From Narcine bancroftii (Eukaryota): a stretch of 64,000 bases of DNA. The position numbers and the translations under genes were made by a program. The stretch covers positions 81,716,001 through 81,780,000 of the forward strand of contig NC_091473.1 of NCBI RefSeq assembly GCF_036971445.1. The letters run 5' to 3'. This document shows, piece after piece, positions 1,641-50,224 of the stretch; positions within the stretch are counted from its first letter, which is position 1; each line of letters opens with the position of its first letter. The notes beneath the pieces are model-generated. The model made no database searches and was not told the DNA's origin. It saw only the letters and a list, made by a program, of their open reading frames with translations.

Positions 1641-1734
1641 TGGGAGTTTGTCTCTTGTGACGAAGACCGAGATTGAAAAAGCCTTCTGTCACCTTTCTCC
1701 CAGATCTACATTCACAGAGCCACCCCCTACCCTG

Positions 1735-4700
1735 CATTCAGCCCCTACCCTGCATTCAGCCCCTACCCTGCATTCAGCCCCTACCCTGCATTCAGCCCCT
1801 ACCCTGCATTCAGCCCCTACCCTGCATTCAGCCCCTACCCTGCATTCAGCCCCTACCCTGCATTCAGCCCCTACCCTGCATTCAGCCCCTACCCTGCATT
1901 CAGCCCCTACCCTGCATTCAGCCCCTACCCTGCATTCAGCCCCTACCCTGCATTCAGCCCCTACCCTGCATTCAGCCCCTACCCTGCATTCAGCCCCTAC
2001 CCTGCATTCAGCCCCTACCCTGCATTCAGCCCCTACCCTGCATTCAGCCCCTACCCTGCATTCAGCCCCTACCCTGCATTCAGCCCCTACCCTGCATTCA
2101 GCCCCTACCCTGCATTCAGCCCCTACCCTGCATTCAGCCCCTACCCTGCATTCAGCCCCTACCCTGCATTCAGCCCCTACCCTGCATTCAGCCCCTACCC
2201 TGCATTCAGCCCCTACCCTGCATTCAGCCCCTACCCTGCATTCAGCCCCTACCCTGCATTCAGCCCCTACCCTGCATTCAGCCCCTACCCTGCATTCAGC
2301 CCCTACCCTGCATTCAGCCCCTACCCTGCATTCAGCCCCTACCCTGCATTCAGCCCCTACCCTGCATTCAGCCCCTACCCTGCATTCAGCCCCTACCCTG
2401 CATTCAGCCCCTACCCTGCATTCAGCCCCTACCCTGCATTCAGCCCCTACCCTGCATTCAGCCCCTACCCTGCATTCAGCCCCTACCCTGCATTCAGCCC
2501 CTACCCTGCATTCAGCCCCTACCCTGCATTCAGCCCCTACCCTGCATTCAGCCCCTACCCTGCATTCAGCCCCTACCCTGCATTCAGCCCCTACCCTGCA
2601 TTCAGCCCCTACCCTGCATTCAGCCCCTACCCTGCATTCAGCCCCTACCCTGCATTCAGCCCCTACCCTGCATTCAGCCCCTACCCTGCATTCAGCCCCT
2701 ACCCTGCATTCAGCCCCTACCCTGCATTCAGCCCCTACCCTGCATTCAGCCCCTACCCTGCATTCAGCCCCTACCCTGCATTCAGCCCCTACCCTGCATT
2801 CAGCCCCTACCCTGCATTCAGCCCCTACCCTGCATTCAGCCCCTACCCTGCATTCAGCCCCTACCCTGCATTCAGCCCCTACCCTGCATTCAGCCCCTAC
2901 CCTGCATTCAGCCCCTACCCTGCATTCAGCCCCTACCCTGCATTCAGCCCCTACCCTGCATTCAGCCCCTACCCTGCATTCAGCCCCTACCCTGCATTCA
3001 GCCCCTACCCTGCATTCAGCCCCTACCCTGCATTCAGCCCCTACCCTGCATTCAGCCCCTACCCTGCATTCAGCCCCTACCCTGCATTCAGCCCCTACCC
3101 TGCATTCAGCCCCTACCCTGCATTCAGCCCCTACCCTGCATTCAGCCCCTACCCTGCATTCAGCCCCTACCCTGCATTCAGCCCCTACCCTGCATTCAGC
3201 CCCTACCCTGCATTCAGCCCCTACCCTGCATTCAGCCCCTACCCTGCATTCAGCCCCTACCCTGCATTCAGCCCCTACCCTGCATTCAGCCCCTACCCTG
3301 CATTCAGCCCCTACCCTGCATTCAGCCCCTACCCTGCATTCAGCCCCTACCCTGCATTCAGCCCCTACCCTGCATTCAGCCCCTACCCTGCATTCAGCCC
3401 CTACCCTGCATTCAGCCCCTACCCTGCATTCAGCCCCTACCCTGCATTCAGCCCCTACCCTGCATTCAGCCCCTACCCTGCATTCAGCCCCTACCCTGCA
3501 TTCAGCCCCTACCCTGCATTCAGCCCCTACCCTGCATTCAGCCCCTACCCTGCATTCAGCCCCTACCCTGCATTCAGCCCCTACCCTGCATTCAGCCCCT
3601 ACCCTGCATTCAGCCCCTACCCTGCATTCAGCCCCTACCCTGCATTCAGCCCCTACCCTGCATTCAGCCCCTACCCTGCATTCAGCCCCTACCCTGCATT
3701 CAGCCCCTACCCTGCATTCAGCCCCTACCCTGCATTCAGCCCCTACCCTGCATTCAGCCCCTACCCTGCATTCAGCCCCTACCCTGCATTCAGCCCCTAC
3801 CCTGCATTCAGCCCCTACCCTGCATTCAGCCCCTACCCTGCATTCAGCCCCTACCCTGCATTCAGCCCCTACCCTGCATTCAGCCCCTACCCTGCATTCA
3901 GCCCCTACCCTGCATTCAGCCCCTACCCTGCATTCAGCCCCTACCCTGCATTCAGCCCCTACCCTGCATTCAGCCCCTACCCTGCATTCAGCCCCTACCC
4001 TGCATTCAGCCCCTACCCTGCATTCAGCCCCTACCCTGCATTCAGCCCCTACCCTGCATTCAGCCCCTACCCTGCATTCAGCCCCTACCCTGCATTCAGC
4101 CCCTACCCTGCATTCAGCCCCTACCCTGCATTCAGCCCCTACCCTGCATTCAGCCCCTACCCTGCATTCAGCCCCTACCCTGCATTCAGCCCCTACCCTG
4201 CATTCAGCCCCTACCCTGCATTCAGCCCCTACCCTGCATTCAGCCCCTACCCTGCATTCAGCCCCTACCCTGCATTCAGCCCCTACCCTGCATTCAGCCC
4301 CTACCCTGCATTCAGCCCCTACCCTGCATTCAGCCCCTACCCTGCATTCAGCCCCTACCCTGCATTCAGCCCCTACCCTGCATTCAGCCCCTACCCTGCA
4401 TTCAGCCCCTACCCTGCATTCAGCCCCTACCCTGCATTCAGCCCCTACCCTGCATTCAGCCCCTACCCTGCATTCAGCCCCTACCCTGCATTCAGCCCCT
4501 ACCCTGCATTCAGCCCCTACCCTGCATTCAGCCCCTACCCTGCATTCAGCCCCTACCCTGCATTCAGCCCCTACCCTGCATTCAGCCCCTACCCTGCATT
4601 CAGCCCCTACCCTGCATTCAGCCCCTACCCTGCATTCAGCCCCTACCCTGCATTCAGCCCCTACCCTGCATTCAGCCCCTACCCTGCATTCAGCCCCTAC

Positions 4701-7548
4701 CCTGCATTCAGCCCCTACCCTGCATTCAGCCCCTACCCTGCATTCAGCCCCTACCCTGCATTCAGCCCCTACCCTGCATTCAGCCCCTACCCTGCATTCA
4801 GCCCCTACCCTGCATTCAGCCCCTACCCTGCATTCAGCCCCTACCCTGCATTCAGCCCCTACCCTGCATTCAGCCCCTACCCTGCATTCAGCCCCTACCC
4901 TGCATTCAGCCCCTACCCTGCATTCAGCCCCTACCCTGCATTCAGCCCCTACCCTGCATTCAGCCCCTACCCTGCATTCAGCCCCTACCCTGCATTCAGC
5001 CCCTACCCTGCATTCAGCCCCTACCCTGCATTCAGCCCCTACCCTGCATTCAGCCCCTACCCTGCATTCAGCCCCTACCCTGCATTCAGCCCCTACCCTG
5101 CATTCAGCCCCTACCCTGCATTCAGCCCCTACCCTGCATTCAGCCCCTACCCTGCATTCAGCCCCTACCCTGCATTCAGCCCCTACCCTGCATTCAGCCC
5201 CTACCCTGCATTCAGCCCCTACCCTGCATTCAGCCCCTACCCTGCATTCAGCCCCTACCCTGCATTCAGCCCCTACCCTGCATTCAGCCCCTACCCTGCA
5301 TTCAGCCCCTACCCTGCATTCAGCCCCTACCCTGCATTCAGCCCCTACCCTGCATTCAGCCCCTACCCTGCATTCAGCCCCTACCCTGCATTCAGCCCCT
5401 ACCCTGCATTCAGCCCCTACCCTGCATTCAGCCCCTACCCTGCATTCAGCCCCTACCCTGCATTCAGCCCCTACCCTGCATTCAGCCCCTACCCTGCATT
5501 CAGCCCCTACCCTGCATTCAGCCCCTACCCTGCATTCAGCCCCTACCCTGCATTCAGCCCCTACCCTGCATTCAGCCCCTACCCTGCATTCAGCCCCTAC
5601 CCTGCATTCAGCCCCTACCCTGCATTCAGCCCCTACCCTGCATTCAGCCCCTACCCTGCATTCAGCCCCTACCCTGCATTCAGCCCCTACCCTGCATTCA
5701 GCCCCTACCCTGCATTCAGCCCCTACCCTGCATTCAGCCCCTACCCTGCATTCAGCCCCTACCCTGCATTCAGCCCCTACCCTGCATTCAGCCCCTACCC
5801 TGCATTCAGCCCCTACCCTGCATTCAGCCCCTACCCTGCATTCAGCCCCTACCCTGCATTCAGCCCCTACCCTGCATTCAGCCCCTACCCTGCATTCAGC
5901 CCCTACCCTGCATTCAGCCCCTACCCTGCATTCAGCCCCTACCCTGCATTCAGCCCCTACCCTGCATTCAGCCCCTACCCTGCATTCAGCCCCTACCCTG
6001 CATTCAGCCCCTACCCTGCATTCAGCCCCTACCCTGCATTCAGCCCCTACCCTGCATTCAGCCCCTACCCTGCATTCAGCCCCTACCCTGCATTCAGCCC
6101 CTACCCTGCATTCAGCCCCTACCCTGCATTCAGCCCCTACCCTGCATTCAGCCCCTACCCTGCATTCAGCCCCTACCCTGCATTCAGCCCCTACCCTGCA
6201 TTCAGCCCCTACCCTGCATTCAGCCCCTACCCTGCATTCAGCCCCTACCCTGCATTCAGCCCCTACCCTGCATTCAGCCCCTACCCTGCATTCAGCCCCT
6301 ACCCTGCATTCAGCCCCTACCCTGCATTCAGCCCCTACCCTGCATTCAGCCCCTACCCTGCATTCAGCCCCTACCCTGCATTCAGCCCCTACCCTGCATT
6401 CAGCCCCTACCCTGCATTCAGCCCCTACCCTGCATTCAGCCCCTACCCTGCATTCAGCCCCTACCCTGCATTCAGCCCCTACCCTGCATTCAGCCCCTAC
6501 CCTGCATTCAGCCCCTACCCTGCATTCAGCCCCTACCCTGCATTCAGCCCCTACCCTGCATTCAGCCCCTACCCTGCATTCAGCCCCTACCCTGCATTCA
6601 GCCCCTACCCTGCATTCAGCCCCTACCCTGCATTCAGCCCCTACCCTGCATTCAGCCCCTACCCTGCATTCAGCCCCTACCCTGCATTCAGCCCCTACCC
6701 TGCATTCAGCCCCTACCCTGCATTCAGCCCCTACCCTGCATTCAGCCCCTACCCTGCATTCAGCCCCTACCCTGCATTCAGCCCCTACCCTGCATTCAGC
6801 CCCTACCCTGCATTCAGCCCCTACCCTGCATTCAGCCCCTACCCTGCATTCAGCCCCTACCCTGCATTCAGCCCCTACCCTGCATTCAGCCCCTACCCTG
6901 CATTCAGCCCCTACCCTGCATTCAGCCCCTACCCTGCATTCAGCCCCTACCCTGCATTCAGCCCCTACCCTGCATTCAGCCCCTACCCTGCATTCAGCCC
7001 CTACCCTGCATTCAGCCCCTACCCTGCATTCAGCCCCTACCCTGCATTCAGCCCCTACCCTGCATTCAGCCCCTACCCTGCATTCAGCCCCTACCCTGCA
7101 TTCAGCCCCTACCCTGCATTCAGCCCCTACCCTGCATTCAGCCCCTACCCTGCATTCAGCCCCTACCCTGCATTCAGCCCCTACCCTGCATTCAGCCCCT
7201 ACCCTGCATTCAGCCCCTACCCTGCATTCAGCCCCTACCCTGCATTCAGCCCCTACCCTGCATTCAGCCCCTACCCTGCATTCAGCCCCTACCCTGCATT
7301 CAGCCCCTACCCTGCATTCAGCCCCTACCCTGCATTCAGCCCCTACCCTGCATTCAGCCCCTACCCTGCATTCAGCCCCTACCCTGCATTCAGCCCCTAC
7401 CCTGCATTCAGCCCCTACCCTGCATTCAGCCCCTACCCTGCATTCAGCCCCTACCCTGCATTCAGCCCCTACCCTGCATTCAGCCCCTACCCTGCATTCA
7501 GCCCCTACCCTGCATTCAGCCCCTACCCTGCATTCAGCCCCTACCCTG
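1735..7548. repeat. Perfect 18-bp minisatellite (CATTCAGCCCCTACCCTG) x323
   Basis: 5814 bp / 18 = 323 units; no variant unit seen by eye. Confidence 0.97.
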
Positions 7549-7886
7549 CATTCACAGAGCCACCCCCTACCCTGCATTCACAGAGCCACCCCCTACCCTG
7601 CATTCACAGAGCCACCCCCTACCCTGCATTCACAGAGCCACCCCCTACCCTGCATTCACAGAGCCACCCCCTACCCTGCATTCACAGAGCCACCCCCTAC
7701 CCTGCATTCACAGAGCCACCCCCTACCCTGCATTCACAGAGCCACCCCCTACCCTGCATTCACAGAGCCACCCCCTACCCTGCATTCACAGAGCCACCCC
7801 CTACCCTGCATTCACAGAGCCACCCCCTACCCTGCATTCACAGAGCCACCCCCTACCCTGCATTCACAGAGCCACCCCCTACCCTG
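7549..7886. repeat. 26-bp minisatellite (CATTCACAGAGCCACCCCCTACCCTG) x13; one more copy at 1709-1734
   Basis: 338 bp / 26 = 13 units; shares both ends of its unit with the 18-mer. Confidence 0.95.
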
Positions 7887-8075
7887 ATTCTCCCCTCTCC
7901 ACTCCTGTCTAATTATCACCTTTTGTCTGTTGGGCTGTGCTTTTCTCCTGCCCTTTCTTCCCTACTCCCCAGCCTTTTTTTCAGGCCTACATTTTGCTCA
8001 ATCCTTGAACATCCATAATGTATCTTTACATCCTATGGAAGCTGTGACACCAGTCAAGTTCCACCAGGATTGTTG
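7887..8075 (+). mobile_element. Penelope-like terminal repeat, inverted relative to 503-720
   Basis: Reverse-complement similarity, e.g. ccagcctttttttcaggcctac vs gtaggtgcctgaattgaaaggctgg and tatctttacatcctatggaagc vs gcttccatgggaggtaaagata. Confidence 0.6.
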
Positions 8076-16384: not shown

Positions 16385-19300
16385 TTCTTTGGCTTGGCTT
16401 CGCGGACGAAGATTTATGGAGGGGGTAAATGTCCACGTCAGCTGCAGGCTCGTTTGTGGCTGACAAGTCCGATGCGGGACAGGCAGACACGGTTGCAGCG
16501 GCTGCAGGGGAAAATTTGTTGGTTGGGGTTGGGTGTTGGGTTTTTCCTCCTTTGCCTTTTGTCAGTGAGGTGGGCTCTGCGGTCTTCATCAAAGGAGGTT
16601 GCTGCCTGCCTAACTGTGAGGCGCCACGATGCACGGTTTGAGGCGAGATCAGCCCACTGGCGGTGGTCAATGGGGCAGGCACCAAGAGATTTCTTTAGGC
16701 AGTCCTTGTACCTTTTCTTTGGAGCACCTCTGTCACGGTGGCCAGTGGAGAGCTCGCCATATAACACGATCTTGGGAAGGCGATGGTCCTCCATTCTGGA
16801 GACGTGACCCATCCAGCGCAGCTGGATCTTCAGCAGCGTGGACTCGATGCTGTCGACCTCTGCCATCTCGAGTACTTCGACGTTAGGGGTGTAAGCGCTC
16901 CAATGGATGTTGAGGATGGAGCGGAGACAACGCTGGTGGAAGCGTTCTATGAGACGTAGGTGGTGCCGGTAGAGGACCCATGATTCGGAGCCGAACAGGA
17001 GTGTGGGTATGACAACGGCTCTGTATACGCTTATCTTTGTGAGGTTTTTCAGTTGGTTGTTTTTCCAGACTCTTTTGTGTAGTCTTCCAAAGGCGCTATT
17101 TGCCTTGGCGAGTCTGTTGTCTATCTCATTGTCGATCCTTGCATCTGATGAAATGGTGCAGCCGAGATAGGTAAACTGGTTGACCGTTTTGAGTTTTGTG
17201 TGCCCGATGGAGATGTGGGGGGGCTGGTAGTCATGGTGGGGAGCTGGCTGATGGAGGACCTCAGTTTTCTTCAGGCTGACTACCAGGCCAAACATTTTGG
17301 CAGTTTCCGCAAAGCAGGACGTCAAGCGCTGAAGAGCTGGCTCTGAATGGGCAACTAAAGCGGCATCATCTGCAAAGAGTAGTTCACGGACAAGTTTCTC
17401 TTGTGTCTTGGTGTGAGCATGCAGGCGCCTCAGATTGAAGAGACTGCCATCCGTGCGGTACCGGATGTAAACAGCGTCTTCATTGTTGGGGTCTTTCATG
17501 GCTTGGTTCAGCATCATGCTGAAGAAGATTGAAAAGAGGGTTGGTGCGAGAACGCAGCCTTGCTTCACGCCATTGTTAATGGAGAAGGGTTCGGAGAGCT
17601 CATTGCTGTATCTGACCCGACCTTGTTGGTTTTCATGCAGTTGGATAATCATGTTGAGGAACTTTGGGGGACATCCGATGCGCTCTAGTATTTGCCAAAG
17701 CCCTTTCCTGCTCACGGTGTCGAAGGCTTTGGTGAGGTCAACAAAGGTGATGTAGAGTCCTTTGTTTTGTTCTCTGCACTTTTCTTGGAGCTGTCTGAGG
17801 GCAAAGACCATGTCAGTGGTTCCTCTGTTTGCGCGAAAGCCGCACTGTGATTCTGGGAGAATATTCTCGGCGACACTAGGTATTATTCTATTTAGTAGAA
17901 TCCTAGCGAAGATTTTGCCTGCAATGGAGAGCAACGTGATTCCCCTGTAGTTTGAGCAGTCTGATTTCTCGCCTTTGTTTTTGTACAGGGTGATGATGGT
18001 GGCATCACGAAGATCCTGAGGCAGTTTACCTTGGTCCCAACAAAGCTTGAAAAACTCATGCAGTTTGGCATGCAGAGTTTTGCCGCCAGCCTTCCAGACT
18101 TCTGGGGGGATTCCATCCATACCTGCTGCTTTGCCACATTTCACTTGTTCGATTGCCTTATATGTCTCATCCAGGGTGGGAACCTCATCCAGCTCTAGCC
18201 TTAGGAGCTGTTGAGGGAGCTGGAGCAGGGCGGAATCTTGGACTGAGCGGTTGGCACTGAAAAGAGATTGGAAGTGTTCTGACCATCGGTTGAGGATGGA
18301 GATCTTGTCGCTGAGGAGGACTTTGCCGTCTGAGCTGCGCAGCGGGCTTTGGACTTGGGGTGAGGGGCCGTACACAGCCTTTAGAGCCTCGTAGAAACCC
18401 CTGAAGTCGCCAATGTCTGCGCTGAGCTGTGTTCGTTTGGCGAGGCTAGTCCACCACTCATTTTGGATCTCCCGGAGTTTACGCTGAAGATGGCTGCATG
18501 CGCGACGGAAGGCTTGTTTCTTCTCTGGACAGGACGGCTTTGTAAGGTGAGCCTGGTGGGCAGCTCGCTTCTTTGCCAGCAGCTCCTGGATTTCCTGGCT
18601 GTTTTCGTCGAACCAGTCCTTGTTTTTCCTGGAGGAGAAGCCCAGTACCTCTTCAGTGGATTGCAGTATGGTAGTCTTCAACTGATCCCAGAGGGTTTCA
18701 GGGGACGGGTCCGTGAGGCGGGTTGCATCGTCGAGCTTTGCTTTGAGGTTTGCCTGGAAGTTTCCTCTCGCTTCGTCTGACTGCAGGTTTCCAACATTGA
18801 ACCTCTTTCTGGGGGCTTTATTGTTCCTGGGCTTTGGTTTGAAGTGAAGGTTGAGCTTGCAGCGAACCAGCCGGTGGTCAGTGTGGCATTCCGCGCTAGG
18901 CATGACCCTGGTGTGGAGCACATCTCGTTTGTCACTTTCTCGCACCAGGATGTAGTCCAGGAGGTGCCAGTGTTTGGATCGGGGATGCATCCAGGTGGTC
19001 TTAAGGCTGTCCCTCTGCTGAAAAAGGGTGTTTGTAATGACAAGCCGCTGTTCTGCGCAGAGCTCCAACAGGAGGCGCCCATTGTCGTTGCACTTGCCGA
19101 CGCCATGCTTGCCCAGGATTCCTGGCCAGGTTTCTGAGTCTTTGCCGACACGAGCGTTGAAGTCGCCCAGGATGACAACCTTGTCGGCTGTAGGGGTACG
19201 TTGGATGAGGTTGCGCAGGTTGGTGTAGAACTTGTTCTTTTCTGCTGGTTCCGCCTGGAGGGTTGGAGCATAGACACTGATTAGGGTGATGTGACGCTTG

Positions 19301-20203
19301 TTTTGAAGTGGGAGTCGCATGGACATGATTCGGTCCGAGAGGCCTGTCGGAAGGTTTTCGAGTTTGGAGGCAATGAAGCTCTTGACCATGAAGCCTACAC
19401 CAGATAGGCGTCATTCATCCGAAGGCTTGCCAGACCAGTAGAGTGTGTAGCCCGCGCCGCGTTCTTGGAGGCTGCCTACATCTGCCAGGCGGACTTCACT
19501 GAGAGCGGCTATGTCGATGTCAAGTCTGAGGAGTTCATGTGCAATGAGGGCAGACCGACGTTCAGGTCGGTGGCTGTCAGCCTTGTCTAGCATGGTTCTG
19601 ATGTTCCAGCATGCTAGCTTGAGTTTGTGAGCATCTTTTGAGGGGGAGGACGTGGAGGGGGAGGACGTGGACCTGTCCTCGGGCCTGCGCAAAGGAGCTT
19701 TTAGGTGGAGTGCAGTGCGCGCAGTACTGGCCCCACCCTTTACACCCATGGTTCGTGTGCCGTGGCCGAGCAAGCTGGGACGTGGCAGCGAGGTCCTTGG
19801 GTCGTAGGTTTTATATCGGAGTGGCCTTCTCCTATGCAGGTTTCTTACCCGGGCTGGAGGGGCCTGCCTCCCCTCTTAGGTCGGTCCATACTGCCCGGAC
19901 CGGGGCCGAGGCCGCCGCAGCTCACCCTGTGCCTGGACTGGGGCCGCCGCCTCCCACTCTCAGCCCGGATCGGGGCCTTCGCCTGCCCCACTCGACCGAG
20001 GCCGGGGCCGCCGTCTCCCCCTTGCTCCTGCCCGGGTCGGGGCCGCCGCCGTCTACCCTTCGCCCGGACCGGGGCCGGGGCCGCTGCTGCTCTCCCTGTG
20101 CCCGGACTGGGGCCGCCGCCTCCCACTCCCTGTCCGGACCGTGGCCTCCGCCTGCCTCACTTGACTGAGGCCGGGGCCGCCGTCTCCCCCTTGCTCCTGC
20201 CCG
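16385..20203 (-). mobile_element. Near full-length RTE-clade LINE in HSPB11 intron 1
   Basis: Single ORF with APE endonuclease and RT (LLFADDAAL) plus a C-terminal CxxC...H motif; (GAA) tail at 16385; GC-rich repeated 5' region. Confidence 0.92.
16438..19773 (-). pseudogene. RTE APE-RT ORF with one in-frame TGA (19411-19413)
   Basis: ORFs 19411-19773 (LACWNIRTM...AALSEVR) and 16438-19389 are in the same frame, separated only by a TGA. Confidence 0.9.
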
Positions 20204-30705: not shown

Positions 30706-30813
30706 CTTAATGGAACAAGAGCAACACATCTACGATTTGTTATCAAATCAGGATTTCACCATTTTGTATCAGTACACAAAGTGACAATAGAAAGTACAGA
30801 GGAAGTCACTTAA
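30706..30813 (+). CDS. HSPB11: HSPB11/IFT25 last coding exon
   Basis: LNGTRATHLRFVIKSGFHHFVSVHKVTIESTEEVT* (cf. human ATYLRFII.SAFDHFASVH.V); AATAAA at 30900-30905. Confidence 0.93.
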   Translation, partial: LNGTRATHLRFVIKSGFHHFVSVHKVTIESTEEVT

Positions 30814-31146
30814 GTGAACAGAGCACAAGTATTATAAAAACCAGACTTCACTGTTCAATCTTTCATCTCTTATGTAAAAACTTTATTGCAATTATTGTGA
30901 ATAAATGATTTTTGCTTTGCACTATTGCAATCTTCACTGGTACCTCTGAAGAGTGCATTATATTTTCAAATTGACTTAAACCCATCAAATTGAATTGAAA
31001 TAGCTTTATTATAACCATTTGGATACAATTTATTGAAGATTTCACTCCTAAATGAGCTGTTTAAAACCATGGAAATATACAAACAGATGTTGAATAATTG
31101 TTTAATATTTCAGAATATAAAATTTCAACCACTGATTTAAATGCTC

Positions 31147-31214
31147 TTAGCTAAACTTCAAAACATTAGATAACAGTCATCTTAATTTTGGCTGCAATCT
31201 TCATAAATAGCTAA
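31147..31214 (-). promoter_or_regulatory. Distal SECIS-like hairpin of DIO1 (non-canonical 3' core UAAU)
   Basis: TTAGCTA-ttt-ATGAA-GATTGCAGCCA-AAA-TTAAGA-TGACTGTTATC-TAAT-...-TAGCTAA: helix I, helix II and apical AAA are present. Confidence 0.55.
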
Positions 31215-31499
31215 AATCATTGTACTTACAATGGGTGACATATTATATTCCTCAATGAAATGTAAATATCCAGTGAAGCAGAATAATAGCTTTGGTTTTC
31301 TCCCACTGTTCGAAACTGACCGGGGGGAGTAGATTAATTGGGTGTTAATTTTGTGTAAAATTCAATGCTCTATTTGGAAAAAAATCTATTTTGCATCAGA
31401 AGTTGGGGGTGGGGGGGGGGGAAGACAAGATAACAGACAAAGAATAAACAAAAGTTAACATGGATTTCTGGGGAAAAAATCCTATTGAAGAAACATAAC

Positions 31500-32540
31500 C
31501 AGTTACATTTTCCAAATCTGTTATAAAGTAAATAATGGGAAGTTGCTGAATGTGGATTTTCAAAAAGTCAACAATAAAGTCAAAGGTTATTGTGTCAAAT
31601 TACGGAGCTTGGTGAAAGTAATGACATGAATTGAACATTAACAGACAAATCATAGTAATAAAATTGGTTATTTTAGGATGATTGGCAATAATAATTAGTG
31701 ATACCACAGGGATGTGGCCTCAGTACTTGGCCTCAGCTATTCATGATTTGAATGAGGGAGGAGAAAGGTAAATAATATGATAATAAATTGGAATGGTATT
31801 ATTAATTGTGATAGGGAGACAGAGGCTTCCAGATGACTTGGACATTAAATGGATAAAAACTTCCCAGATGTATGTAAATTGTTAAGATCCACTTTGGTTA
31901 AAAAAAGCAAAGATAATGAATTATTTAAATAGTGTTAGACTGTTGCATCTTATTCAGGTAAGAGAAAGCAAAAACACAGGAGTAACAAGAGTTAAGGAAG
32001 GAATATTAATGTTTGCTTTCATAGCAAAAAGATTAAAGGGACAACTATATTAATGCAGGGCCTTGGCAAGACCACGCAAGTTATTATAGGCGGTTTTTGG
32101 TCTCTTTCATCCAAGAAAGAATGTTATCCTAAAATGACTTTGTACAACAATTAAGTTGTTTAGGTTGGTATTCATTAGAGTGAAGAAGAATGAGAAAAAC
32201 AATCACAGTTTAATATAATCATAATAGGATAGATGGATTAGATATGGCAAGTCTTTCCCTTGACTAGGGTGTTAGATTTGAGCGGTCACTATCTCAGATA
32301 CAGGGTGAAGCAACAACAAAACATTTCTTCATTCAGAGATGGCAAATCTGTAATTTTTTCTACTGTGGACACCAAAATCACTTCATACATTTAAGGTGAT
32401 ATACATTTATAGATGCAAAAGGCATTGAGATATGGGAGGAGAGGATGGGAATAAGGAATTGAGATAATGGATCAGTCACAATTGAATTGTGGAGTTGGCT
32501 CAAAGGGCCCACAAGCTACATCTGCTTCGGTTTTTCTATT
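31500..32540 (+). mobile_element. Old CR1-type LINE fragment in the DIO1 3' region
   Basis: Degenerate RT/3' end motifs (gatttt-caaaa, gtgataccacaggg, ttcttcattcagag...ctgtaatt, CR1-like tail). Boundaries approximate. Confidence 0.55.
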
Positions 32541-32820
32541 TCCAATATTCTGGTTCTTGTTTTCCAAGACATTGAACACTGAGTTTAACATTGGGAATGC
32601 AGAATGCACAGACAGAATTCATTTTTTAGGAATCTAGGTTTTTTTTCTTCATGCTATTTTGAAAGTGTTGTCAAAGTGAGTCCTTTAGAATGCAATTGTA
32701 TTTTAAACACATTACACCACCAGATCCCAGCCCTAACTGAAAAAATTCACAGGTTAAATTATGTAATTAGTACAATTTATATTGAAATATAATCATCAAC
32801 AAAATATAAAGCTTCTTTTC

Positions 32821-32889
32821 TTCCACATTCAAATAATCAGATCCCAGTCATTGCAATTTAAAACTGAGAAAATCATGATCAATATGGAA
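32821..32889 (-). promoter_or_regulatory. Proximal SECIS element of DIO1
   Basis: TTCCATATT-gatc-ATGAT-TTTCTCAGTTTT-AAA-TTGCAA-TGACTGGGATC-TGAT-tatttg-AATGTGGAA: 9-bp helix I, AUGA/UGA core, AAA 12 nt above the core; ~80 nt after the stop codon. Confidence 0.7.
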
Positions 32890-32971: not shown

Positions 32972-33037
32972 TTAACTTTGGTTTTGCAATATTAATCTTA
33001 CTTCTTCTAGATTATATCCCTGAGGTCCTCTGTTGCC
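32972..33037 (-). CDS. DIO1: Iodothyronine deiodinase type 1, exon 4
   Basis: GNRGPQGYNLEEVRLILQNQS* (cf. human GKSGPWNYNPEEVRAVLEK); acceptor TTTCAG. Confidence 0.9.
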   Translation of the reverse strand, partial: GNRGPQGYNLEEVRLILQNQS

Positions 33038-34325
33038 CTGAAATATATTAAAAAATACTGTTATAGTTGCAAATTAAATATCTTTGCCAAGGATCTTTAG
33101 GACATTTATTTGCCTTGTCTTTGATCCATAGTACACCATTTATTCTCATCAGTAATGTTGTATTGTTGCAAACCCGTGTTTCCTATGTACAGAAAAGGTT
33201 TTCTAGATCTGTGTTTAAATTCCTTTTTATGGTAAATTAACAAAAAAAATAGCAAAAATACAATTGATTAATGTTATCAATATAGAAATACTGTAGTTTT
33301 AATCAAAATCTTAAGATTTTCTGTGTATGTGAACAGTTGATTCTGTGGATTATATTAACTTGTAGGGCAAATGCAACTTATTCAAGACGACGAAGAGCCA
33401 GCATTCTGGCATCTGGTACAATTTTATTTAAACTTGAGCAAGGTCATTCTATTGTTAAACTTGGATTTAGAAGTCAAAACACCCAAAGGTTTTATTATAA
33501 AACCCATGAACATTGTCTGCCTTACACATTCTTAAGTCAATTTTCTTTTAGTAGCTCATTAAAAATTTCATTTTCTCCCCATCTTCATTGTTTATATTAA
33601 CACTAAATCTTCCCTTCATTTTAGTTCTTGGTCCATTTACAAAATGCAAAAATACATGGCTGCAAAAAGTAAAATTCAAGCATTAATGTTTACATTTCCA
33701 TGATTTAGAACATTAACGGTTAGTGTAGTGGTTAGTGCAATGCTGTTACAGCTCCAGTGATCGGGACTAGGGTATGAACCCTGTACTGTCTGTAAGGAGT
33801 TGGTGCGTTCTCTCTGTCTGCATGGGTTTTTCCCGGGGCCTCTTACTATTCAAAACTTATCGGGGATTGTAGGTGTAATTGGGCAACACGGTCTCATGGG
33901 CCGAAATGGCCTTTTACCATGCTGTATGCCTAAATTTAAATTGAAGATGTACTTAATTGCACCTCTCATCTTCTAAGTCAACAGCCTTGCCAAGTCCCAA
34001 AGAACCACCTTTCCCTTGGATACATATTTTACAATAATCCAATCTGGTTGAACAGCTGATATTTGTCCAAGGCCTAACTATTTTGTCTCCTTTGTAGTAA
34101 GAGTTGAAAGCATATTTTCTTTCTAAAATGTTTAAGAAAAAGAGAGAATAGACAGGCGAGAGATTCAATAAAACAACAGTCGCATCATCGCATCAATGCA
34201 CAGGGACATGTGGGATAGATGTATAGCATGAATTTTGATGCATTCATCTGTGTGTTGTACTTTGATAGAAACAAATATCAGTGAAACTCTTGTTTGGATT
34301 TGACCTTCAAAGGATAGTCAGTTAC

Positions 34326-34525
34326 CTTGTAAATGATTTTGCCATTGAGCACCACATACAGTCTTTCTGGCATAGCCCCATATTTGGAACTGGCCATATT
34401 ATCAATTGAGTCGATTACTATTGGACAGGGTGGCTCCTCTTTTAGGAGCAGGCTTGCAGCATTCATACGATCACTTAGTGTTTGATGTTTTTTAATATCC
34501 ACATTGTTTTTGAAAGCCCAGCCAT
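34326..34525 (-). CDS. DIO1: DIO1 exon 3
   Basis: [24 protein letters not shown]...[19 protein letters not shown]; 200 nt; AG/GT. Confidence 0.95.
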
Positions 34526-39050: not shown

Positions 39051-39194
39051 CTGTGGCATGTGCCTCTTGAATGTACACAATGAGGAAATCAGCTTTTGAG
39101 CTGAAGTCTTTGACAAGTCTTTTGAACTCATCAAACTTGAAGAGAAATGGAGGTCAGGAGCAACTTCCGAAATTCAATACCAGTGGTTGGTTAT
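39051..39194 (-). CDS. DIO1: DIO1 exon 2 with selenocysteine UGA (39154-39156)
   Basis: [48 protein letters not shown]; 144 nt; canonical splice sites. Missed by the ORF track because of the UGA. Confidence 0.95.
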
Positions 39195-40793
39195 CTAGAA
39201 AGAAAATTTAATCTGTTACCAAAAGAGTTGTGAGAATACAATTATCTGCCAAAGCAGATTGCATTAGATGAATATGAAAATAATGCATGATAAATATTTC
39301 TAACCAATGGATTTTTTTGCATATTTATTTTTCCCAAAGAGAATGACGATTAGAATGACTTATGTGTGAAGATGAAAAATATTTACACAATGAGTAAATG
39401 ATCTGTAATGCCTAACACAAAAGGATGATCTCAGTAAATTTATTAAAGAGAGCTGCATATATACTGTACTTGTAAAACAAATCAAAATTTTGGAGAAAGG
39501 GTTTGGGAGTTTAATTGTTTAGCTTTTTTTTTAAAAAGAGTTCATATAGAGATGGAAGTGCTTTATTCAAGTTTATTCAACTTTAGTCAAGTTTATTATT
39601 AACTGATTGCACAGTACAACCTGATGAAATGGCATTGTCTGGACCTTGGTGCAAGCATGCAGATGTACAACCAAACAACTCACATACAGACAACAATACA
39701 TATGCAGGACAAGTATTCATATTGTTTCATGAATATGAGAGTGGGAAAAAGCTGTTTCTCAGCCTGATGGTGCTGGCTCTGATGCTCCTGTATCTCTTTC
39801 TTGATGGGAGCAGCTGAAAGCAGTGAAATGCATCTTAGTTATATCTAATGTGTCTTTTATAAGTGGCTTTCCTGTATTACACATCAGTGATTTTCCTAAA
39901 TTATGTGAGAGTCAATAATGCAGAATAAAACACAGGCTAGCGTCGGGTTACATGTTACTGAATTCTTATCTCGAATAAACAACATTGCACTAATTAATTG
40001 GTGAACCCATCAGCCAGATCATGTCCTCTTCACACTACTAACATCACGAAAAAGGTACGAGAGCCTGAAACACAGCACCTTGAGACGCAAGGACAATGTT
40101 TATCCCTCTGCCATAAGATTTCTCAATGAATAATGAACCACAGACTTTCACTTATTTTCTTGCGCTATTTAGTTCTGAAATAAATTTATAGCAATATTTG
40201 CACTGTAAAGCTGCTCCAAAACAATGAATTTTGTGACCCGTTCATAAATTCTGATAAAACAAACCCTTAAAGTTGTTTACCTTCCTGCATGACTTGGAAA
40301 CCAGCTATCAGAACTGGGATTCAAAGGTGTGCTGAGGCCAAGAATGGGTCCTAAGGGCCTCAGGTGCTGACGATTTCCTGGTTGTATTGGGAGTTTGGAT
40401 CTGGAGCTCAGGTTGCCTGAGAACTAAAGTCTCGTGTGGCTGCAGGAGCTCGGGACCTGAATTCACAGACGCTCATTTGGCGATTTCACCCCACAGGCAA
40501 ACGGTGACCCTAATTTTCCTGGAGAAATTCTCAGTTCTCCCAGGCCTTTCACACTGCAGTCCAAATTCATGGGTATTCACCCTCCCCAGCAATTTAGGGG
40601 GAGTCCCACCCCCAACTGCCCACCCACTCCCTCCTTCCCGGCCATCAGTAGATTAGTCACTCGCTCGCTCACTCCCTCCCTCCCATTGGTAGGTTGGTTG
40701 CTCGCCTGCCTGCTCCCTCCCCCCCAGTCGATCATCAGTCACTCGCCCACCTGGTCCCTCCCTCCTGGCCGTCGGTAGGTCGCTTGCCTGTCC

Positions 40794-43700
40794 TGCAGTA
40801 GTGTATTGTGCTGATGGCTGGCTCTGCCCCCATCTGCTCACATATAACCCTGGTGTCCTGTCGAAACCCAGAACCCTTCTGAAGACTACTGTGAAACCCT
40901 GCTCATAGTTATAAGCTAATAAAAGCGTTTATTCTCCCTCCAGTTGTGAGTTTTTATTCGCACTACAATTTTATGAGCTTATTCCCTAAACGATGGAAGT
41001 GCTACTCAAGCCAGGGATGCTGCTGATCAACCCTCTGTCCCCTGACGCGGTTACATGAGGCAGCGACTGCTCGAGTCAGGAAAAAAGGACCTGACTAGCC
41101 ATGTTGAACTGGCCAAATTGTTGGAACATGCCAAGCTCGAGAACGACGACCTCAAAGCTAGCAAGCTTGCTCACCCAGGTGAACCCTTCCAAGGGCTGGC
41201 TGCTCCTGCTACCCCTGCCCTAACGACTGCCACTTCCCGTGCTAGAGAGTGCTTTTTCTGCGGCAAGAGCCAGCATTCCCGATCTCGTTGCCTGTAAAGA
41301 CTCTGTGTGTTCTAGCTATGGCAAGAAAGGGCATTGCGTGAGGGTTCGCAGCGCGAGGGGAAGCCCGGGAAAGTCCACGTCTGAACCACTCCCGGACCCA
41401 ATTCCAGTCCCGAGCTGTCTGCCCCAAATTCATGCGAACCCACTTGGTGTGCTACACGCCGATGGAGGGTGGCATTGACAGTGAGGAAATGGCGCAAAAA
41501 GGTTCGGTGGCCATCTTGCCGTGACCCAAATTCAAACTTGGCACCATCATCGTCAGAGGAGGAAGGAGGGCAGCCATCTTGCTGTGCTACAAGGTCAACA
41601 TCATCTTACCCACGCAGGGTAACCCATGACGGTGGGGGTCACTCGAGTGAAGAGCATGGTGTCTCCGGGGTCCTAGCCTTGATGGTCCTAGATCAGGACA
41701 GACCTCACCAGCTCAGCAACTGGATAGTGACTGTGAAGGTAAATGCCATTAAATGCCTAACTGACACAGGCTCTACTAAAAGCTTCATATACTTGATGAA
41801 TTGTGTGCTCTGGTGTTGTTGAGTCTGGACTTCCTGTGTCACCTGAAGTGTGACCTTGGACTATTCTGGTCCCCTCCCCCCTGTAACGGTTTGGAATGGA
41901 GGGTCCCTAAAATCAGAACCCACATGCAGCCTCTCCACACTGAATATCGATCCCCCACCTCTCTTCCCAAACCTGTCCTCGGACTGCAAATCTATTGCTA
42001 CCAGCACAGCAGACCGAGATTTTATAAAGACTGAGACACAATGTCTACTCAACGAAGGTATCATCAAACCTAGCTCCAGCCCGTGGTGAGCGCAAGTGGT
42101 AGTGGTGAAAGGGGAAAACATGTCCAGGCTAGTAATTGACTATAGCCAAACTATTAATCGGTACACACTCCTGGACGCATACCCCCTTCCTCGAATTTCA
42201 GACATGGTGAATGATATTGTGCAGTATCGGGTCTATTTGACCATCAACCTAAAAGCTGCTTATCACCAGCTGCCAATCCATTCTGAGGAACATCCATATA
42301 CGGCATTTGAGGCCAACAGTCATCTCTATCAATTCCAGAGGGTCCCTTTTGATATCACTAACAGGGTTTCTATCCTCCAGAGGCAGATGTACAGAATGGT
42401 GGATGAGTATTGGGCGAAGGCTTCATTCCCCTAACTCGCTAACATCACCATCTGCAGCCACACCTTGGAAGACCATGATGCCAACCTCCAGAGTTTTCTC
42501 CACGTGGTGAAAGCACTGAACCTTACTCTGACAAGTGTGTGTTCAGGACTAAACGTCTGGCTATCCTTGGCTACTTAGTGAATGGCATAATTGGCCCCGA
42601 TCCTGATAGGATGCGTCCCCTGTTAGAGCTCCCCATCCCCTGGACCACAAAGGCTTTGAGGAGATGTCTAGGATTTTTCTCATATTATGCCCAGTGGATC
42701 CTTCAATACGCTGATAAGGTTTGCCCTCTCTTAAAAGCCACTAATTTCCCTATCTCGCCTGAAGTCCAAATGGCTTTTAACTACCTCTGGAATCACATTA
42801 TGAAAGCCGCCATGCATGTGGTGGATGAGAATGTACTTTTCCAAGTGGAAAGCGATGTTTTGGACGCAGCCCTGGCTGCGACCCTCAACCAGGCTCAGAC
42901 ATTACAAGGCCACGAACTCCGGAACCCATCGGTGGAAAAGGAGGCTCAAGCCATTGTAGAAGCTGTGAGGCACTTGAGATACTACCTGGCTGGTAGGAAA
43001 TTTATGCTCCTCACTGACCAGCGCTCGGTCGCATTCATGTTTAATAATGTAAGAGGAGCAAAATCAAAAATGACAAAATTGCTACAATTTTGACATTGTC
43101 TATTGGCCAGGAGCCCTTAATACCCTGCAGATGTCTTATCCAGAGGAAGCTGTGCCTCTGCATACACCGGGCAACTGTGGTCTCTGCATAATGAGCTCTG
43201 CCAACCAGGGGTTACCCACATGGCTCATTTTGTCAAGGCCTGCAACCTGCCCTACTCCATGGAAGACGTCAGGGAAATGACCAGGTCTGCGAGGAGTGCA
43301 AGCTGCATTTCTACAGTCTCGCAAAGCTACACCTGATCAAGTCATCCAGGCTCTTTGAACGGCTCAGGGTTGATTTTAAGGGACCTCCCCTCCACGAACA
43401 GGAACACTTTCTTCCCATCATTGATGAGTACTCCCGCTTCTTGTTCACCATTCCATGTCCAGACACATCCACTTCGTCATTCATAAAGGCCCTAGATTCC
43501 ATTTTTGCCCTGTTCGGGTATCCCAGCTATATTCATAGCAACTGGGGCTCATCCTTTATGAGTGATGAGCTACATCAGTACCTGCTGGTGAGGGGCATCA
43601 AATCCAGCAGGACCACTACCCACAACCCCCAGGGGAATGGGCAGGTTGAAAAGGAGAATGCTATGGTCTGGAAGACTGTCAAACTGTTCCTGGTCAAAAG

Positions 43701-44525
43701 GCCTTCCAGACTCACGCTGGCAGGAAGTCCTCCCATTGGCACTCCATTCCATCTGGTTGATAGTATGTACCGCGACCAACGCTACTCCTCACGAGCTCCT
43801 ATTCAATTTTGAAAGAAGGTCAACATCGGGAACCACATTCCAAACCTGGCTCACCACTCCTGGTCCAGTCCTTCTCAGGAAGCACGTGAGGAGAAGCAAG
43901 ACTGACCCCCCACCCCAGTGGAAAGGGTGAAACTGCTCCATGCTAATCCCACATATGCCTATGTGGAGTACCCAATGGCAGAGAGGACACCGTCTCCATC
44001 AGGGACCTGGCACCCGCCGGAACAGAGGGTCTGTTGCCTCGTGCCCTGCGAGCCACCGAGCTCATTCTTGCCACCCCCAGTCAGGGCCTCAGGGGATCTG
44101 GTTCAGGAGTAAAGTGCATCACCCTCCACCATTGGGCCGGAGTCCCAGCCCACCTCTTTTCCCTCACAAGGGAACCAGGAGATCCAAGGAGCCCAAGGCC
44201 CCCTGGGACTAAGGTGCTCCACCAGGATCTCCAGAACCCCAGATCGCTTAAATCTGTAAGTAACTGTATATTTTTCAACCTTTTTTTTCCTGAACCCATG
44301 TTCTCTGTCTTCATTCACAGACCCTAAATTCTGCAGGAAGGGCTGAATGCAGTGAACTAGGATTCACTGGTCGTGTGTTGTGCCTCCCGGCTCCACCCCC
44401 ATCTGCTCACATCTAACCCTAGTTTCCCACCTAAACCCAGAATCCTTCCAAAGACTACTGTGAGACCCTACCCATAGAGTTATAAGCTAATAAAAGCGTT
44501 TGTTCTCCCTCCAGTCGTGAGAGCT
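40794..44525 (+). mobile_element. Degenerate Gypsy LTR retrotransposon (LTRs ~40794-40967 and ~44348-44525)
   Basis: Gag CxxCxxxxH, protease DTGS, RT DYSQTINR..LDAYPLPRI, RNase H EKEAQAI/TDQRS, integrase NPQGNGQVEK; PPT GGAAGGGCTGAA before the 3' LTR; many stops and frameshifts. Confidence 0.88.
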
Positions 44526-45400: not shown

Positions 45401-45731
45401 CTTTCGAGAAATCAAGCAGTCGATGTTCCTTGTGGTCAAAGTCGATGACTCGAGTATTGGGAGCAGAGGTGCCACTGAAAGCTTCATCTCCGGCATTTAT
45501 TAATAGATGTTGCACCACGACCTTCATAAACTTAAAACTGAAAAATGTTGGGCCCCAGTCTTCATATTTAAATTTTGAATTTTGTGTCATGGTGCTTTTC
45601 ATTCCAGCTTTCAGAACGATCTTCTTCAGGGTTTCAGGAAAGAGAAGCATCATAATTTTACCAATCAATGTCTGCAGAAAGATATAGACCAGAAGGCCCA
45701 AAGTCTTCAAGTACACAGTGAATTTCCCCAT
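45401..45731 (-). CDS. DIO1: DIO1 exon 1 (full protein 246 aa, Sec124)
   Basis: MGKFTVYLKTLGLLVYIFL...MTQNSKFKYEDWGPTFFSFKF...APNTRVI..; hydrophobic N-terminal anchor; donor G|GTATG; 331+144+200+66 = 741 nt in frame. Confidence 0.93.
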
Positions 45732-48136: not shown

Positions 48137-48415
48137 GTGAGCAATTTTGTACCAGTAATTGCTTTAGAAATTTAATTTCTGTTATGTTCCCCCAAAATAG
48201 AGAATTAGTATATTTCAATAATCAGTAGAATTTAAAAAAAAATGTTGTCGTCATGGGAAAATAAGTCCTTTATTGATTAACTTCAGTGTATCTTGACACT
48301 TAAGTCCTCAGTGAAGTTCCATATTGGAAATGGAATTGCTTCTAAACTTTTGTGGCCTTTCAGCAGTTTACTTTTTCATTTGGTTTCCTGGTGCTCCTTT
48401 TTGTACAACTGAATT

Positions 48416-50134
48416 CTTTGGCTTGGCTTTGCGGACGAAGATTTATGGAGGGGGTAAAAAGTCCACGTCAGCTGCAGGCTCGTTTGTGGCTGACAAGTCC
48501 AATGCGGGACAGGCAGACACGATTGCAGCGGTTGCAGGGGAAAATTGGTTGGTTGGGGTTGGGTGTTGGGTTTTTCCTCCTTTGCCTTTTGTCAGTGAGG
48601 TGGGCTCTGCGGTCTTCTTCAAAGGAGGTTGCTGCCCGCCAAACTGTGAGGCGCCAAGATGCACGGTTTGAGGCGTTATCAGCCCACTGGCGGTGGTCAA
48701 TGTGGCAGGCACCAAGAGATTTCTTTAGGCAGTCCTTGTACCTTTTCTTTGGTGCACCTCTGTCACGGTGGCCAGTGGAGAGCTGGCCATATAACACGAT
48801 CTTGGGAAGGCGATGGTCCTCCATTCTGGAGACGTGACCCATCCAGCGCAGCTGGATCTTCAGCAGCGTGGACTCGATGCTGTCGACCTCTGCCATCTCG
48901 AGTACTTCGACGTTAGGGATGTAAGCGCTCCAATGGATGTTGAGGATGGAGCGGAGACAACGCTGGTGGAAGCGTTCTAGGAGCCGTAGGTGGTGCCGGT
49001 AGAGGACCCATGATTCGGAGCCGAACAGGAGTGTGGTATGACAACGGCTCTGTATACGCTTATCTTTGTGAGGTTTTTCAGTTGGTTGTTTTTCCAGACT
49101 CTTTTGTGTAGTCTTCCAAAGGCGCTATTTGCCTTGGCGAGTCTGTTGTCTATCTCATTGTCGATCCTTGCATCTGATGAAATGGTGCAGCCGAGATAGG
49201 TAAACTGGTTGACCGTTTTGAGTTTTGTGTGCCCGATGGAGATGTGGGGGGGCTGGTAGTCATGGTGGGGAGCTGGCTGATGGAGGACCTCAGTTTTCTT
49301 CAGGCTGACTTCCAGGCCAAACATTTTGGCAGTTTCCGCAAAGCAGGACGTCAAGCGCTGAAGAACTGGCTCTGAATGGGCAACTAAAGCGGCATCGTCT
49401 GCAAAGAGTAGTTCACGGACAAAACTGCATGAGTTTTTCAAGCTTTGTTGGGACCAAGGTAAACTGCCTCAGGATCTTCGTGATGCCACCATCATCACCC
49501 TGTACAAAAACAAAGGCGAGAAATCAGACTGCTCAAACTACAGGGGAATCACGTTGCTCTCCATTGCAGGCAAAATCTTCGCTAGGATTCTACTAAATAG
49601 AATAATACCTAGTGTCACCGAGAATATTCTCCCAGAATCACAGTGCGGCTTTCGCGCAAACAGAGGAACCACTGACATGGTCTTTGCCCTCAGACAGCTC
49701 CAAGAAAAGTGCAGAGAACAAAACAAAGGACTCTACATCACCTTTGTTGACCTCACCAAAGCCTTCGACACCGTGAGCAGGAAAGGGCTTTGGCAAATAC
49801 TAGAGCGCATCGGATGTCCCCCAAAGTTCCTCAACATGATTATCCAACTGCACGAAAACCAACAAGGTCGGGTCAGATACAGCAATGAGCTCTCTGAACC
49901 CTTCTCCATTAACAATGGCGTGAAGCAAGGCTGTGTTCTCGCACCAACCCTCTTTTCAATCTTCTTCAGCATGATGCTGAACCAAGCCATGAAAGACCCC
50001 AACAATGAAGACGCTGTTTACATCCGGTACCGCACGGATGGTAGTCTCTTCAATCTGAGGCGCCTGCAAGCTCACACCAAGTCACAAGAGAAACTTGTCC
50101 GTGAACTACTCTTTGCAGACGATGCCGCTTTAGT
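48416..50134 (-). mobile_element. 5'-truncated, 5'-inverted RTE LINE
   Basis: 3' part on minus (48416-49422), upstream RT part on plus (~49420-50134); 12-bp TSD TACAACTGAATT at 48404-48415 and 50135-50146. Confidence 0.9.
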
Positions 50135-50224
50135 TACAACTGAATTATGATTCTTCTGTAAATTGACATAGGAAAATCTAAGGAAGGATTGCTTAGGGTG
50201 GAAGGGTTAGTGTAGCAGTTAGCA

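Follow-up and report, generated by a model that had tools for sequence, protein, structure and literature searches.

Two SECIS-type hairpins behind the single-Sec DIO1 gene of the ray Narcine bancroftii, one of them with A instead of G in its core

The DIO1 gene and its transcript

The window, the whole stretch of 64,000 nucleotides analyzed here, holds a DIO1 gene on its minus strand, with four exons, 246 codons, GT-AG ends throughout, and an intact frame. The coding part of exon 1 (45401-45731, with the ATG at 45731) matches PF00837, and exon 2 (39051-39194) carries the sole in-frame TGA at 39154-39156, residue 124 of 246, in the context SCSUPPF. Exon 3 (34326-34525) shares 79% identity with a shark protein that bears the name type I deiodinase, and the coding part of exon 4 (32972-33037) ends in a TAA stop at 32972. 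When the genome was searched with PF00837, the five matches were the three DIO1 exons of the window and two intronless deiodinase genes on C5. A second DIO1 gene as the owner of the distal hairpin described below was therefore rejected.

Several repeats share the window with the gene. From 1724 to 7890 runs a tandem array in which an 18-bp unit is repeated 324 times with 100% matches, and a related 26-bp array follows it. An uninterrupted frame of 990 amino acids at 16438-19410 (minus strand) presumably encodes a LINE endonuclease and reverse transcriptase, and broken pieces related to it lie at about 48300-50200. Intron 1 of DIO1 contains, at about 40300-44500, an insert with frames broken by stops, which we take to be LTR-retrotransposon-like with protease-, RT-, and integrase-like frames. 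Intron 3 holds an abundant SINE-like repeat (33716-33940), a short fragment of which is also found in the untranslated region (UTR) at about 31290-31350, upstream of the distal hairpin; both draw many contigs.

The splice joint of exons 3 and 4 (33036/34325) is present in contigs of runs X1 and X16, and the presumed RNA status of runs X1, X8, and X16 rests on this joint together with low intron depth. Contigs of 6 of the 16 runs were aligned in this way; X13 had none over the proximal cluster, which says nothing either way. One X1 contig covers 30706-33039, that is, both hairpins. The earliest pair of AATAAA signals 3' of the stop (31029-31034 and 31005-31010) lies beyond the distal hairpin, and 31005-31034 on the minus strand is the likely main poly(A) region. 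The depth of the X8 contigs drops from 1685 to 418 over 30991-31023, which, coming from contigs, is a weak hint of a poly(A) region only. Because of the splice joint, the spanning contig, and the AATAAA signals past the distal element, both hairpins can be placed in the transcribed 3' UTR.

The original prediction had suggested that alternative polyadenylation might tune the use of the hairpins. This idea is unsupported, since the sequence has no AATAAA between the stop and the distal hairpin and one RNA contig covers both. ATTAAA at 32214 and TATAAA at 32781 and 32411 are possible minor sites between the hairpins, and contigs, which show neither transcript ends nor levels, leave room for one such as the ATTAAA. 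Farther downstream, 30781-30875 forms a second run of about 95 nt free of substitutions in one relative (organism D, with a 4-nt insertion) around an AATAAA at 30887, and is possibly a conserved downstream poly(A) region.

The hairpins of the 3' UTR

All four stretches that had been predicted lie at their given coordinates on the minus strand, past the DIO1 stop codon (32972). For comparison, 12 SECIS candidates of the genome were used: those of SELENOF, a TXNRD-like gene, two deiodinases, and five GPX genes, and three SELENOP elements. Nine of the 12 were chosen by eye through a descriptor that requires GA in the 3' core, and three came from a model without that requirement; all are candidates, with gene names that rest on nearby Pfam matches. 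Two covariance models were built, neither of which included DIO1 sequences. R2 was built from three sequences and recovered 0 of 6 other candidates under default filters, and R3 was built from six non-DIO1 SECIS, those of nine candidates with E up to 0.09. The Rfam model SECIS_1 (RF00031) gave no match in the window at gathering or E-value thresholds, and neither hairpin reaches any Rfam score; genome-wide, 130 of 56760 candidates were scored with it and yielded two SECIS, one over the cut-off, so its reach here is uncertain. A profile search with PF10262 gave no match. On both strands of the 64 kb, a strict descriptor that accepts GA or AA as the 3' core, the AA option having been added after the distal element was seen, matched exactly twice, at the proximal and the distal hairpin.

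The proximal hairpin (32821-32889, minus strand) has AUGA at 32876-32873, AAA at 32859-32857, and UGAU at 32839-32836. The gene in whose 3' UTR it lies has an in-frame Sec UGA, and the hairpin fits the RUGAN/KGAW core with apical AA (AUGAU/UGAU, AAA), which has no listed change in three relatives (organisms B, D, and F). As predicted, this canonical core (UGA/GA) is topped directly by two mismatches, U·C and U·U, where Watson-Crick pairs are expected on the quartet; according to PMC1874613, SBP2 binding needs paired, preferably purine-pyrimidine, positions above the core. Both positions are paired in 8 of the 9 tabulated SECIS candidates of the genome, one is mismatched in 1 of 9, and both are mismatched in none. 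(One intronless deiodinase has a SECIS candidate, L021:9426-9499 on the minus strand, in which A·C stands as a mismatch immediately over the core.) The spacer from core to AA measures 13 nt, or 14 in the relatives, compared with 11-12 nt in 12/12 other candidates (one read by eye). Published ranges for helix 2 differ, being given as 14-15 bp in PMC2761289 and 11-16 bp in PMC2647825.

The proximal hairpin folds with a z of -3.87 and a constrained energy of -20.5 kcal/mol, within the -19.9 to -36.2 of eight scored references, and it scores at background level with both models (below 3.1 bits with R2, 6.2 bits with R3). The changes listed for it in the relatives are one loop substitution (B, D, and F), one internal-loop substitution (B and D), and a loop insertion of 1-2 nt, which lengthens the spacer to 14. 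The core, both mismatches, and the stems have no change among the listed substitutions (9 of 14 in B, 9 of 13 in D, 11 of 16 in F). With position classes set by hand, changes affect 3 of 19 loop positions and none of the 50 in the core or stems (Fisher p 0.018); organisms B and D have identical substitution lists at the proximal cluster and are not independent.

The canonical core, the stable fold in the range of other SECIS, and the restriction of changes to loops are what would be seen if the proximal hairpin alone worked as the SECIS, the distal one being a disabled duplicate or being kept for another role at the 3' end, such as stability or polyadenylation. Human SELENOF, which carries a nonfunctional extra SECIS according to PMC2874816, is a precedent, and overall the UTR is more conserved over its final 560 nt (21/563 versus 127/1496 substitutions in organism D). 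However, a lone proximal SECIS would break the helix-2 rule for SBP2 binding, would have a spacer unlike those of all the other candidates, and would score as background with the genome's own SECIS model. This account seems rather unlikely.

The distal hairpin (31147-31214, minus strand) has AUGA at 31204-31201, AAAA at 31189-31186, and UAAU at 31168-31165. It is in the same UTR, upstream of the first AATAAA. Its core is AUGAA/UAAU, with an A at 31167 in place of the canonical G, and UAAU is what the genome, the X1 and X8 RNA contigs, and organism D all read, so that the invariant 3' GA is missing. The rest of the geometry is that of a SECIS, with a helix 1, a paired base of helix 2, a spacer of 11 nt within the usual 11-12, and an apical AA. 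The first pairs above the core are G-C and then A-U, the arrangement that SBP2 prefers (PMC1874613, PMC2647825). The original prediction of a better stem over a mutated core was right about the core and the base of the stem; the rest of the stem has two internal mismatches and the fold is weaker (-11.4 versus -20.5 kcal/mol for the proximal hairpin). Alone, the 68-mer folds no better than its shuffles (z -0.70) and more weakly than 8/8 scored SECIS candidates, and it ranks 12th by fold among 42 window hairpins when any 3' core is allowed.

The distal element also sits at the tip of an extended hairpin of 154 nt (31105-31258, minus strand; fold z -3.10), in which 4/4 differences of organism D are unpaired or preserve pairing. 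A long hairpin of this kind could invite A-to-I editing, which would turn UAAU into UIAU and restore a G-like core, but the RNA contigs of X1 and X8 read A at 31167 with no other letter. Only majority editing is ruled out by this, because contigs drop rare variants; editing nonetheless appears extremely improbable. Both covariance models place the distal element first in the window, R2 at 17.0 bits and R3 at 20.5 bits (E 0.046, with rough calibration). Chance matches in the window reach 18.4 bits, and the six held-out SECIS candidates span 13.0-25.6 bits, a range that includes the distal score.

Conservation of the distal element was read fully in one relative, organism D, which is about 7% divergent. 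There, the 98 nt of 31124-31221 have no substitution and no net indel, with all 21 substitutions of the covering contig listed, and therefore the A at 31167 is common to organism D. The element itself has 0 substitutions in 68 nt versus 148 in 2059 nt, which gives p 0.006 against the whole-UTR baseline; with the lower local divergence as baseline it rises to 0.05-0.06, and for a 98-nt identical run anywhere in the contig it is 0.34. In organism F, 2 nt are inserted at some point within 31124-31227, and the list for this organism covers 9 of 15 substitutions.

One could reverse the roles and consider the distal A·A-core hairpin as the working SECIS, with the proximal one a weak or dead copy that is slow to decay. 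The model scores (20.5 versus 6.2 bits), the consensus spacer and stem base, the 98-nt identity in organism D, and the position just before the first AATAAA all agree with this, as does a parallel in a GPX1-like gene discussed below. Yet a dead copy should not stay unchanged as the proximal hairpin has, with its core, mismatches, and stems free of listed changes in three relatives while the stem of its degenerate neighbor changes, and the core G that the distal hairpin lacks is otherwise invariant. The reversal is considered improbable.

The common motif predicted for the proximal and distal hairpins, AAATT-nnn-ATGACTG-nn-ATCT(G/A)AT, matches exactly in both. It is the top direct repeat within 2.6 kb, and, as a motif picked post hoc, it occurs twice in the 3.33-Gb genome, both times in the DIO1 UTR, against 0 for the reversed control. 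In local alignment with the proximal element, the distal element scores 34, the degenerate copy 35, and the presumed remnant 24. Shuffled partners reach these scores in 0, 2, and 604 of 5000 trials, respectively, and shuffles of the whole 2.1-kb UTR in 75, 48, and 959 of 1000; none of 56 real window tiles reaches the distal or the degenerate score. The distal element and the degenerate copy are the two best UTR matches to the proximal element, and each is just marginal at UTR scale. Among 36 pairs of other SECIS candidates in the genome, the maximum is 22, compared with 34 for the proximal-distal pair. An unrelated SELENOP SECIS aligns with the distal element at a score of 29, so SECIS look-alikes can come near the duplication score. 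An independent point for common origin is position 32852, where all three relatives (B, D, and F) have a G, the letter of the distal copy at the aligned place. On these scores, a duplication that produced the proximal and distal hairpins is likely yet unproven.

The genome has two SECIS candidates behind SELENOP on C1 (L037:3078-3149 and 2613-2683, minus strand), and the first agrees with the DIO1 distal hairpin at 13 of the 14 bases that make up its 3' stem and core, a likeness that is probably convergent. An origin of the distal element as a repeat or mobile element was rejected, since 161 nt around it, searched genome-wide with a method that skips common words, gave one match, itself.

The distal element might also be a chance AT-rich look-alike in a conserved 3' end and no copy of the proximal one at all. 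The 75 shuffled UTRs that match the proximal hairpin equally well would allow this, as would the rank of 12 among 42 hairpins and the lack of an Rfam match. Chance would, however, have to bring sequence likeness, SECIS geometry, and model rank together within a selenoprotein UTR and on its sense strand, in an element that is one of only two strict-descriptor matches in 128 kb and the top match for two DIO1-naive models. Such a coincidence is very unlikely.

The degenerate tandem copy of the proximal hairpin (32707-32767, core part 32719-32752, minus strand) reads GUGA...UGGU and has lost its apical AAA loop. Placed 126 nt downstream from the proximal hairpin, it keeps the helix-2 strands in part, has UGGU as its core, and does not fold (z -0.43). 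The copy is present in 3/3 relatives with an altered stem, the listed changes including the deletion of 2 nt in D and substitutions at three positions in F. Its alignment score and the stem changes bear out the prediction of a copy without its loop: it is a real duplicate, and it is decaying. The supposed 5'-half remnant (32761-32810, minus strand) is no real element. Its similarity is at chance level, with a score matched by 959 of 1000 UTR shuffles, and its ATGA reads ATGT in 3/3 relatives (B, D, and F); it was rejected as a half-SECIS on both counts. SECIS duplication in a single-Sec gene, as originally proposed, is accordingly supported for three copies (proximal, degenerate, and distal) and not for the fourth. 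The accompanying idea of turnover fits the degenerate copy, the sole one that looks like turnover, and not the distal element, which does not look like a decaying relic because it is conserved in the one fully read relative and is the best model match.

The A core and a GPX1-like gene

SBP2, the protein that reads the SECIS, belongs to the L7Ae family. In our mapping of the SECIS onto kink-turn numbering, the changed G would be position 2n, and the distal hairpin would have A·A at 2b·2n. Its sequence fits such a kink-turn, with G1b·A1n and A2b kept and an A at 2n (5' UGA, 3' AA). One report is said to describe tolerated core mutations in the rat D1 SECIS. According to PMC5061560 and PMC3985660, L7Ae binds kink-turns with A·A at 2b·2n, a pair that is isosteric with A·G. 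The same change of G to A on the nonbulged strand is seen there in Thelohania solenopsae Kt-23 and in SAM-I G2nA; these differ in being rRNA or riboswitch turns bound by L7Ae, none of them a SECIS or an SBP2 case. In the one SBP2 exon compared with human, the human sequence of the L7Ae helix is kept, and therefore no compensating change is visible in that exon.

Among 286 curated SECIS, UGA/GA is described as invariable, the single exception being GGA/GA (PMC2647825). A SelW pseudogene SECIS that lost the 3' GA is taken as dead (PMC3316567), and SECISearch3 drops candidates without a GA-AG core (PMC3753652).

A second case of an A core was found with R3, which matches a hairpin at 21.5 bits some 180 nt past the stop codon of a GPX1-like gene (C11 of genome G000, 5.03 Mb). 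The hairpin (L026:648-725, G000:C11 about 5031650-5031720) aligns to the canonical SECIS of a tandem paralogue and has a fold z of -2.25. In the assembly sequence its 3' core is UAAG (L026:666), versus UGAU in the paralogue. The gene has an intact two-exon frame with an in-frame TGA in the context SLUGTT. Its 90% cluster includes a sawfish protein and four Logan proteins; the Logan proteins cross the intron, and one of them, full-length, reads across the UGA and has a conserved N-terminus. Over the 4.5 kb that follow the gene, no canonical RUGA-type SECIS was found, and one CUGA candidate lies beyond the gene's ATTAAA/AATAAA signals. A neighboring GPX paralogue with a canonical SECIS (L053 exon 1, G000:C11 about 4968400-4968700) has the active-site context SLUDQT, not SLUGTT, and about 1.3 kb from stop to SECIS.

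An A core occurs in 1 of 12 non-DIO1 SECIS candidates, a count that is biased towards GA. As far as the assembly tells, the same G-to-A core change is present in the only SECIS candidate of the GPX1-like gene and in the DIO1 distal hairpin. If the proximal hairpin were the only working SECIS of DIO1 and A cores were dead, the GPX1-like gene would be left without any SECIS.

A division of labor, known systems, and meaning

The preferred reading, with a probability of about 0.4, is that both DIO1 hairpins are retained and that both likely help to recode the single UGA as Sec. We infer its functional steps, for both hairpins, from sequence, fold, and comparison. The proximal hairpin would offer SBP2 a normal G·A/A·G kink-turn, but its long helix and its U·C and U·U pairs would make the binding weak. 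In the distal hairpin, the kink-turn would form around A·A at 2b·2n, a pair isosteric with A·G, and this hairpin would serve as a second, probably weaker, SBP2 recruitment site near the poly(A) signal. The two likely derive from an old duplication, and selection would keep both because each copy is impaired; the third, adjacent copy has lost its loop and core and is decaying. An argument that the A core is tolerated comes from the GPX1-like gene, because its only SECIS candidate reads UAAG. That the distal hairpin is active at all is, on balance, somewhat probable. The wider proposal is held tentatively, at a little under even odds: rays would use A·A-core SECIS, independently evolved in at least two genes (DIO1 and the GPX1-like gene) and read by an unmodified SBP2, and DIO1 recoding would be split over two complementary, individually defective copies.

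A teleost DIO1 reportedly has two putative SECIS. Compared with type I SECIS (RF00031; vertebrate DIO1 and GPX1, PMC2647825 and PMC2761289), both hairpins are alike in having helix 1, the internal loop with AUGA, then helix 2 and a run of A at the apex, with no third helix. The proximal hairpin differs by its two pyrimidine mismatches at the helix-2 base and by its spacer of 13-14 nt, and the distal one by its 3' core, UAAU. Genes with a single Sec codon and two SECIS-shaped elements include amphioxus Bf.DI_b, also a deiodinase, and Nematostella Gpx_a (PMC3473315), as well as Ciona SelW1 and human SELENOF (PMC2874816). Their extra element is canonical or has been shown to be dead, whereas the two ray DIO1 elements each miss a different consensus feature and are both constrained, and the ray gene also has a third, decaying copy.

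SELENOP, like DIO1 here, has two elements in one 3' UTR (PMC5133445), and SELENOP of this genome has both. In SELENOP, however, there are many UGAs, the work is divided between the elements, and the human gene has a poly(A) site between them; the ray DIO1, with its 246 codons, has a single in-frame TGA, and its two hairpins are not separated by any AATAAA. SELENOP is called the only two-SECIS vertebrate mRNA in PMC3316567 and PMC5133445. Title listings yielded no literature on this locus, on two SECIS in cartilaginous-fish DIO1, or on A·A-core SECIS. Two SECIS on a one-Sec gene are thus already known, and what is new is the A core recurring in an intact GPX1-like gene.

DIO1 alone cannot prove that an A core works, because the gene here also has a canonical-core hairpin, and the GPX1-like gene is the cleaner test. 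Together they form a natural test set, consisting of a canonical core with a poor stem, an A core with a good stem, and a pair of GPX paralogues that differ at the same base. If both DIO1 hairpins contribute, the supposedly invariant G of the SECIS can be an A. The loss of the 3' GA serves to call selenoprotein pseudogenes. If A-core hairpins do work in a vertebrate, the GA-AG filter would be hiding real selenoproteins, and recognition by SBP2 would be looser than has been taught.
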